The position numbers were made by a program, and so were the translations under genes. This document shows positions 41,311-41,351 of a DNA stretch of 64,000 nt, in pieces (the first letter of the stretch is position 1; the number at the start of each line of letters is the position of its first letter). The notes beneath the pieces are model-generated. The model did no database searches. It saw nothing but the letters and a program-made list of their open reading frames with translations, and was not told the origin of the DNA. This stretch comes from Candidatus Omnitrophota bacterium (lineage in GTDB: Bacteria; Omnitrophota; Omnitrophia; Omnitrophales; Aquincolibacteriaceae): positions 22,080 through 86,079 of the forward strand of contig CAISGE010000070.1 of assembly GCA_903884815.1 (NCBI GenBank), in the 5' to 3' direction.

Positions 41311-41321
41311 GAGTTTTTTAC

Positions 41322-41351
41322 GAGAGAGAGAGAGAGAGAGAGAGAGAGAGA
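41322..41351. repeat. (GA)15 dinucleotide microsatellite (on the minus strand, (TC)15 in the 5' leader of the FGE-domain gene)
   Basis: 30 nt of perfect GA dinucleotide, read directly from the sequence at 41322-41351, 11 nt upstream of the ATG at 41310. Confidence 0.95.

Follow-up and report, generated by a model that had tools for sequence, protein, structure and literature searches.

A hypermutable TC/GA tract located in the 5' coding region of a gene encoding a secreted two-domain protein is probably a frameshift phase-variation switch of this gene. The gene belongs to an uncultured environmental Omnitrophota bacterium and was found in a stretch of 64 kb, hereafter called the window. Frameshift phase variation due to short repeats is a textbook mechanism in host-adapted pathogens such as Helicobacter, Neisseria, Haemophilus and Campylobacter; to our knowledge, it has rarely been documented in uncultured environmental bacteria. 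What is new for this mechanism is the host phylum, Omnitrophota, and the family of proteins with an FGE (formylglycine-generating enzyme) fold, the mechanism itself being classical. The Omnitrophota literature that was searched mentions neither phase variation nor simple repeats nor this FGE-fold family.

The tract, identified by TRF and by a regular expression, is a perfect (GA)15 of 30 bases on the + strand (41322-41351). Read on the - strand, (TC)15 is followed by gtaaaaaactc and by the ATG at 41310-41308, so that the distance from tract to ATG is 11 nt. The first-pass annotation of this DNA had described a (GA)15 microsatellite 11 nt before the ATG of an FGE-domain gene; its coordinates and its sequence are confirmed, the range 41311-41351 that it gave corresponding to the repeat plus the 11-nt spacer. 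The tract is not a chance feature. All the other dinucleotide runs of the window have at most 4 units, a number exceeded by (GA)15 alone, and 100 dinucleotide-preserving shuffles did not yield any match to a 20-nt GA pattern, even with up to 2 mismatches. Neither paralogues nor further copies of the leader element were found within the window.

On the - strand, an AGGAG sequence is followed by 9 nt, by an ATG (ATG1), by four codons (I, S, T, R) and by (TC)15. The tract starts 14 nt past the A of ATG1 and the length of its unit is not divisible by 3; it lies within the ORF opened by ATG1, in which it is translated as Leu-Ser repeats, (Leu-Ser)n. The absence of a Shine-Dalgarno sequence (SD) and the single in-frame ATG initially reported for this gene are both true of the ATG at 41310 (ATG2), but the AGGAG at 41379-41375 and the ATG at 41365-41363 had been overlooked upstream. 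These two peculiarities of ATG2 are found because the n=15 allele is out of frame: ATG1 and the 569-codon ORF, which spans 39601-41310 on the - strand from ATG2, are then in different frames. Many other genes of the window have an AGGAG or a GGAGG 4-9 nt before their start, whereas ATG2 has none; the 9-nt spacing of ATG1 is at the long end of the range seen among them.

ATG2 is the first and only ATG, GTG or TTG of its frame ahead of the signal peptide. Since no in-frame ATG, GTG or TTG is present between ATG2 and the signal peptide, either in the window gene or in its homologue at locus L090, the protein depends on upstream starts. An ATG at 41185, in another frame, was also considered and rejected, as it opens an ORF of only 44 codons, judged by eye to be devoid of signal-peptide character.

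The repeat was initially thought to be part of a 5' leader, where it would tune the promoter-to-start spacing or the leader structure. The data do not support this view, because the tract is preceded by the SD and ATG1, both conserved in three related genes, which places the tract inside an ORF whose frame is set by the unit number. As it is conserved in these three genes, ATG1 would be the start actually used; it is also conserved in the N-termini of the homologues P0004, P0005, P0007 and P0009. Frame arithmetic indicates that ATG1 and the long ORF share a frame when n = 1 mod 3, while n = 2 mod 3 leads to a stop at the TGA that overlaps ATG2 (ATGA context). For annotation, this means that the 569-aa gene model, which lacks a ribosome-binding site, would be an artefact of an out-of-frame allele and that the same gene is called elsewhere as 584 or 586 aa. 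The features of the locus and the two long repeats found elsewhere in the family are listed in Table 1.

Table 1. Sequence features of the repeat-bearing gene, in window coordinates unless a locus is named, and long repeats upstream of other members of the family
Feature	Coordinates	Strand	Evidence or remark
Shine-Dalgarno AGGAG, 9 nt 5' of ATG1	41375..41379	-	Sequence; counterpart SDs in L087 and L090
ATG1, upstream start, likely the true initiation site	41363..41365	-	In frame at n=10 and n=13 (L004, L005); kept in L087 and L090
15-codon ORF MISTRLSLSLSLSLS of the n=15 allele, ending at TAA 41320-41318, 7 nt before ATG2	41318..41365	-	Translation
(TC)15 tract, (GA)15 on the + strand	41322..41351	-	TRF, regular expression; alleles of 10, 13 and 15 units with identical flanks
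ATG2, annotated start of the 569-aa ORF, without SD; possible re-initiation site	41308..41310	-	Met kept in P0004, P0005, P0007 and P0009
Hairpin or Y-shaped element in the coding region before the signal peptide	41165..41290	-	Inverted repeat; arms 41173-41191 and 41262-41280
Signal-peptide core, residues ~50-69, KPSILAVALCFFLSPVASA; predicted cleavage before N70	41104..41163	-	A69 and N70 invariant; modelled helix 50-62
N-terminal beta-sandwich, residues 73-210	40681..41094	-	AlphaFold2, block-mean pLDDT >90; conserved in the family
FGE-sulfatase-like (C-type-lectin-like) fold, residues ~215-569, including the stop codon	39601..40668	-	Pfam, Foldseek and PDB profile matches
(CA)14	L082 2318-2345		120-140 nt upstream of the start codon; hairpin follows
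(CAAAC)5	L034 2333-2357		120-140 nt upstream of the start codon; hairpin follows

The number of units differs among public assemblies. It is 15 in the window and at loci L001 (ERZ27313164), L002 (ERZ27313059) and L003 (ERZ27245625). By contrast with this out-of-frame state, (TC)10 at L004 (ERZ27313068) and (TC)13 at L005 (ERZ27313067) put ATG1 in frame and lead to proteins of 584 aa (P0001) and 586 aa (P0122), respectively; a 584-aa call of the same geometry is also present in ERZ1426631. Thus, both the in-frame (n=10, 13) and the out-of-frame (n=15) states of one full-length ORF are observed, the alleles 10, 13 and 15 coming from different samples. The flanks of these loci differ from those of the window by 0-1 SNP over 4.7-7.7 kb. 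As the flanks are nearly identical while the unit number differs, the tract mutates far faster than by point substitution. The proposal that it is a hypervariable site of the slipped-strand type is therefore borne out directly by assemblies with 10, 13 or 15 units and at most one flanking mismatch. An SSR within an ORF, its polymorphism in near-identical backgrounds and the occurrence of both frame states are the features by which an SSR frameshift phase-variable locus is recognized at the sequence level, and all three are found here.

The cluster of proteins sharing 90% identity has four members, counted in contigs. The 569-aa form is found on 30 contigs and a 569-aa variant with 3 substitutions (P0123) on 1, whereas the 584-aa form, which starts with MISTRLSLSLSRKKLM..., is found on 2 and the 586-aa form, which starts with MISTRLSLSLSLSRKKLM..., on 1. 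The out-of-frame form predominates (30 + 1 contigs versus 3 in-frame contigs), but an allele of any other out-of-frame length would likewise be called as 569 aa, so that allele frequencies cannot be read from these contig counts. Furthermore, the n=10 and n=13 alleles were picked up via the longer in-frame gene calls, which may have introduced an ascertainment effect. All four loci with a readable out-of-frame repeat have exactly n=15, and this uniformity shows that the tract has some stability. Scans with exact flanks and a variable gap gave no match in JGI metagenomes or GTDB genomes, the strain of the window being represented only in ENA/NCBI/Logan look-ups.

The same arrangement is found in homologous genes. 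P0004, P0005, P0007 and P0009, which share 56-64% identity with the window protein and come from other samples and differing genomic contexts, have in common with it the N-terminal layout M-x4-(S/L-rich)-KK-x-M. A degenerate pattern of the leader gave five matches, among which L087 (the P0005 locus) and L090 (the P0009 locus) are true homologues; the other three, L086, L088 and L089, are unrelated chance matches and were discarded. L087 carries AAGGAGG, 8 nt, ATG1, (TC)11 and ATG2, the distance of 53 nt from ATG1 to ATG2 placing them out of frame. Its short ORF ends at a TGA overlapping ATG2, and its ORF from ATG2 corresponds to residues 18-602 of P0005 (585/585 identical). The N-terminus of P0005, MLFTRSSLSLSLSCKKCM, implies 51 nt and (TC)10, in frame. 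Thus, a second gene (L087/P0005), which belongs to another Omnitrophota bacterium and is 58% identical to the window gene, exists with n=10 and with n=11. In L090 (P0009), AGGAGG is followed by 8 nt, ATG1, a short (CT)5 and ATG2, in frame.

At the nucleotide level, the window, L087 and L090 share the SD, ATG1, the position of the tract and the ATGA at ATG2. In one of the alternative frames, a stop precedes ATG2 by 7 nt, which is TAA in the window and in L087 and TGA in L090; in the other, a TGA overlaps ATG2. The identity is higher across this cassette (78-81%) than across the gene body (71-72%). A long tract is found only in some paralogues, the window gene and P0005, while it is short or degenerate in P0004, P0009 and P0007. 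The nearest other homologue, P0002 (75% identity; L084/L085), has neither the repeat nor the cassette. The accession of the P0002 sample is adjacent to those of several samples of the window strain. At L084 656-4805, and also at L085, P0002 is at the head of a cluster in which two FGE-fold genes in tandem are accompanied by a gene of 98 aa and by an ORF of >2,000 aa that is cut by the contig end. Through this cluster, the FGE-fold family may be connected with the giant proteins described in Omnitrophota.

In the mechanism proposed here, ribosomes would load at AGGAG and ATG1 (41365) and translate the tract as (Leu-Ser)n, and slipped-strand mispairing at replication would add or remove 2-nt units, making the frame cycle through three states. 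The ON state would correspond to n = 1 mod 3 (10, 13, 16 ...), with ATG1 fused to the 569-codon ORF and synthesis of the full precursor. With n = 0 mod 3, as in the window (n=15), translation would terminate at the TAA that precedes ATG2 by 7 nt, and n = 2 mod 3 would lead to termination at the TGA overlapping ATG2. These two states would both be OFF or allow at most a weak re-initiation at ATG2, which has no SD. The protein level would be set by the frame, and switching is expected to be frequent and reversible within a population.

It could be objected that the gene produces its protein in every state. ATG1 and its SD would then only deliver ribosomes that re-initiate at ATG2, and the tract would be a translational rheostat changing the level of the protein or its 15-17 N-terminal residues. 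Some observations fit this scheme: in three diverged genes, one alternative frame ends exactly 7 nt ahead of ATG2 and the other at a TGA overlapping it, the Met at ATG2 is kept in all five homologues bearing the cassette, and n=15 is the prevalent allele, with an intact ORF. The 569-aa ORF would also be expected to stay intact if ATG2 alone were sufficient. Nevertheless, off-frame stops are expected by chance shortly past a repeat, ATG2 has no SD, and the three cassette genes are homologous, so that their stop placements are not independent observations. On balance, this scheme is unlikely. It can be added that the placement of stops at 41311-41321 and at the equivalent positions of L087 and L090 is one that would favour termination followed by re-initiation.

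The gene could instead start at the ATG at 41310, with the unit number altering promoter spacing, leader structure or the formation of H-DNA and hence transcription. Homopurine-homopyrimidine tracts can form triplex DNA, and this capacity would suit such a control, as would the long and seemingly intergenic SSRs located upstream of the starts of two other members of the family. In addition, the ATG at 41310 is the sole canonical in-frame start of the n=15 allele. Yet it is devoid of SD, while an SD and an ATG are conserved directly upstream of the tract in three genes. Moreover, no sigma-70-like promoter flanks the tract, since a scan limited to the sigma-70 type detected none in 40900-41700. 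Both non-15 alleles are in frame with ATG1, which also goes against a transcriptional effect, although it could be due to ascertainment. A control of transcription by the tract is therefore very unlikely. The gene prfC (41466-43061), whose product has GTP_EFTU and RF3_C domains, lies directly upstream of the repeat gene on the same strand, 155 nt before ATG2, and a co-transcription of the two genes is possible given the gap of 100 nt before ATG1 and the lack of a predicted terminator. It is equally hard to believe that the variation in unit number is a neutral microsatellite polymorphism or an assembly artefact having no effect on expression. PCR stutter readily affects dinucleotide tracts when libraries are prepared, but the alleles are 2 and 5 units away from n=15 in assembly consensus sequences and n=15 recurs in four independent assemblies, which makes an artefact unlikely. 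Furthermore, the tract is kept in place and is also polymorphic in the 58%-identical gene of another organism, whereas the window has no other long SSR and 460 kb of related loci have hardly any.

By its architecture and its alleles, the window locus appears to match frameshift phase variation of the oipA type, the closest system described. The H. pylori genes sabA, hopZ and babB have the same design as oipA. In oipA (hopH) of Helicobacter pylori, a CT dinucleotide repeat in the 5' coding region provides frameshift switching (PMC10564699). In both cases, a CT/TC tract is located a few codons past the start, before the signal peptide of an exported protein, and the unit number differs among close relatives, which moves the ORF in or out of frame. 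The two systems differ by their hosts (an uncultured environmental Omnitrophota versus host-adapted Campylobacterota) and by their products (a soluble beta-sandwich and FGE-like fold versus an outer-membrane beta-barrel of the Hop type). Unlike oipA, the window gene also has a second conserved ATG and a hairpin segment of ~110 nt between the repeat and the signal peptide.

The opa genes of Neisseria carry CTCTT pentamers in the region encoding the signal peptide and form a multigene family whose copies switch independently, by frameshift. They share with the window gene a pyrimidine-rich repeat on the coding strand, its location in the region encoding the leader peptide and the membership of a multigene family; however, the unit is 2 nt here versus 5 nt in opa, and only some paralogues have a long tract here. 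In the hif locus of Haemophilus influenzae, (TA)n located between the -35 and -10 boxes sets the promoter spacing. As in hif, a dinucleotide repeat of variable number is close to the start of a surface-protein gene, but the tract of the window is preceded by an SD and a start codon and is not flanked by promoter-like hexamers.

The protein carried by the window has only one Pfam match, PF03781 (FGE-sulfatase; residues 279-428, E = 3e-12, 47 bits versus a cut-off of 23.3), which covers only the core of the FGE-sulfatase model. No NCBIfam family was found at cut-off, the best ones being SenA and EgtB with 15-19 bits versus 360-420. A Foldseek search retrieved bacterial FGE structures (E = 1.7e-7, 16-17% identity), in agreement with a profile search of the PDB. 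In the AlphaFold2 model, built with 63 homologues (pLDDT 87.8, pTM 0.87), residues 1-47 are disordered and the helix 50-62 is the hydrophobic core of the signal peptide. In the family, A-x-A followed by NN is invariant where signal peptidase is predicted to cleave. The fold of the C-terminal ~350 residues is that of FGEs (SUMF1 and bacterial FGE; PDB 6muj, 6s07, 2q17), but the window protein differs from them by an additional N-terminal beta-sandwich, by a Sec-type signal peptide, by an identity of only 16-17%, by the absence of cysteines in the region of the copper pair and by the absence of a nearby sulfatase.

Catalytic FGEs (PDB 6muj, 6s07) have a conserved pair of active-site cysteines near their C-terminus, which binds copper. 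The window protein has cysteines at residues 33, 35, 60, 117, 121, 337, 411, 424 and 431 and none in its last 138 residues, and no column of the 63-sequence alignment is an invariant or near-invariant cysteine. As the protein has no cysteine beyond residue 431 and none is conserved in the family, the copper-binding pair of FGEs is absent. The first-pass annotation was right in doubting that the protein is a conventional FGE, given a match to the Pfam core only, NCBIfam scores below cut-offs and the lack of the cysteine pair. It was also right about the lack of a sulfatase partner nearby, since no Sulfatase domain is found in the 20 largest ORFs of the window and no sulfatase signature was found in the window. 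On the other hand, what it described as a long G/D/S-rich tail is actually the conserved and confidently modelled C-terminal part of the FGE-like fold, in which the motif RGG...R...GGR.xRT is conserved in the family. As a guess, the protein could be a secreted or surface binding module. The family has >3,700 matches, mostly in Omnitrophota but also in Bacteroidota, Verrucomicrobiota and Ignavibacteriota.

A variable protein of a diversity-generating retroelement (DGR), of the FGE or C-type-lectin type, was also considered and rejected: the window contains neither a template repeat, as the last 250 nt of the gene occur only once, nor a reverse transcriptase, as no ORF of at least 200 aa bears YxDD. 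It should also be mentioned, with regard to the DGR reading, that the coding sequence is identical across the repeat alleles. Only three substitutions, E211A, S213Y and S222Y, all within 12 residues (~nt 40645-40680), separate the JGI variant P0123 from the protein of the window. These substitutions sit at the junction of the beta-sandwich and the FGE-like domain, residue 222 being in a block of low confidence (221-230, mean pLDDT 55).

Between ATG2 and the signal peptide, the gene carries a hairpin element of ~110 nt, with a fold energy of -46.7 kcal/mol (z = -3.06), which contains GTCATCCTGAGC...GAAGGATCTC. This element is kept at the nucleotide level in L087 and L090 and absent from P0007. 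In L087 and L090, the inferred proteins keep the overall reading frame although the central part of the element is translated in another one, and the inner stems differ among the three distinct sequences (window, L087 and L090). The element could be a MITE-like insertion or a structure controlling translation. A search of Rfam over the whole window gave nothing at gathering score, and the leader was rejected as a known riboswitch or ribozyme. Low-threshold Rfam matches in 41000-41500, to eukaryotic snoRNA, IRES and lncRNA models, were dismissed as low-complexity noise.

Other members of the family also have long repeats close to their start. The 460 kb surrounding 78 members of the family in GTDB genomes contain only two long SSRs, (CA)14 and (CAAAC)5, both located <200 nt upstream of a family gene of Omnitrophota, which suggests that repeat-based switching may recur in the FGE-fold family. 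In two Bacteroidota members (L077 2449-2460 and L051 2432-2441), a short coding (GA)5-6, read VERESN, is found just before the signal peptide. Long recurrent extensions preceding the signal peptide occur in P0022, P0028, P0036, P0046, P0048, P0061, P0063, P0078, P0090, P0100 and others (e.g., MTAWLPSW... or MPK.F.R.SK..CPL.IA.R..). The recurrence of such N-terminal extensions suggests that the family could have conserved 5' elements of other types.

A broader proposal is that the conserved 5' cassette (SD, ATG1, (TC)n, stop near or overlapping ATG2, translated hairpin, signal peptide) forms a three-state translational device in paralogous secreted FGE-fold genes of an Omnitrophota clade and, with the upstream SSRs, marks this family as contingency loci. 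It is put forward tentatively and is rather unlikely in this complete form. If true, the device would give either the full precursor from ATG1 or two states of re-initiation from ATG2, and the contingency loci would reflect an arms race at the cell surface with hosts, prey or phages. An ultra-small size and a host-dependent or predatory way of life have been proposed for this phylum (PMC10066038). With regard to the frameshift switch itself, a frame that differs between samples points to a secreted or surface factor that would be under fluctuating selection by hosts, prey or phages. The TC-repeat gene provides a concrete locus to follow in time-series metagenomes.

Elsewhere in the window, a 1,779-aa ORF (52069-57408, - strand) carries BACON and Ig-like repeats (HYDIN/CFA65/Cep192-type) and probably encodes a large surface protein. 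A chemotaxis cluster, with CheA-like, CheR and two MCPs, is located at ~14-22 kb of the window.
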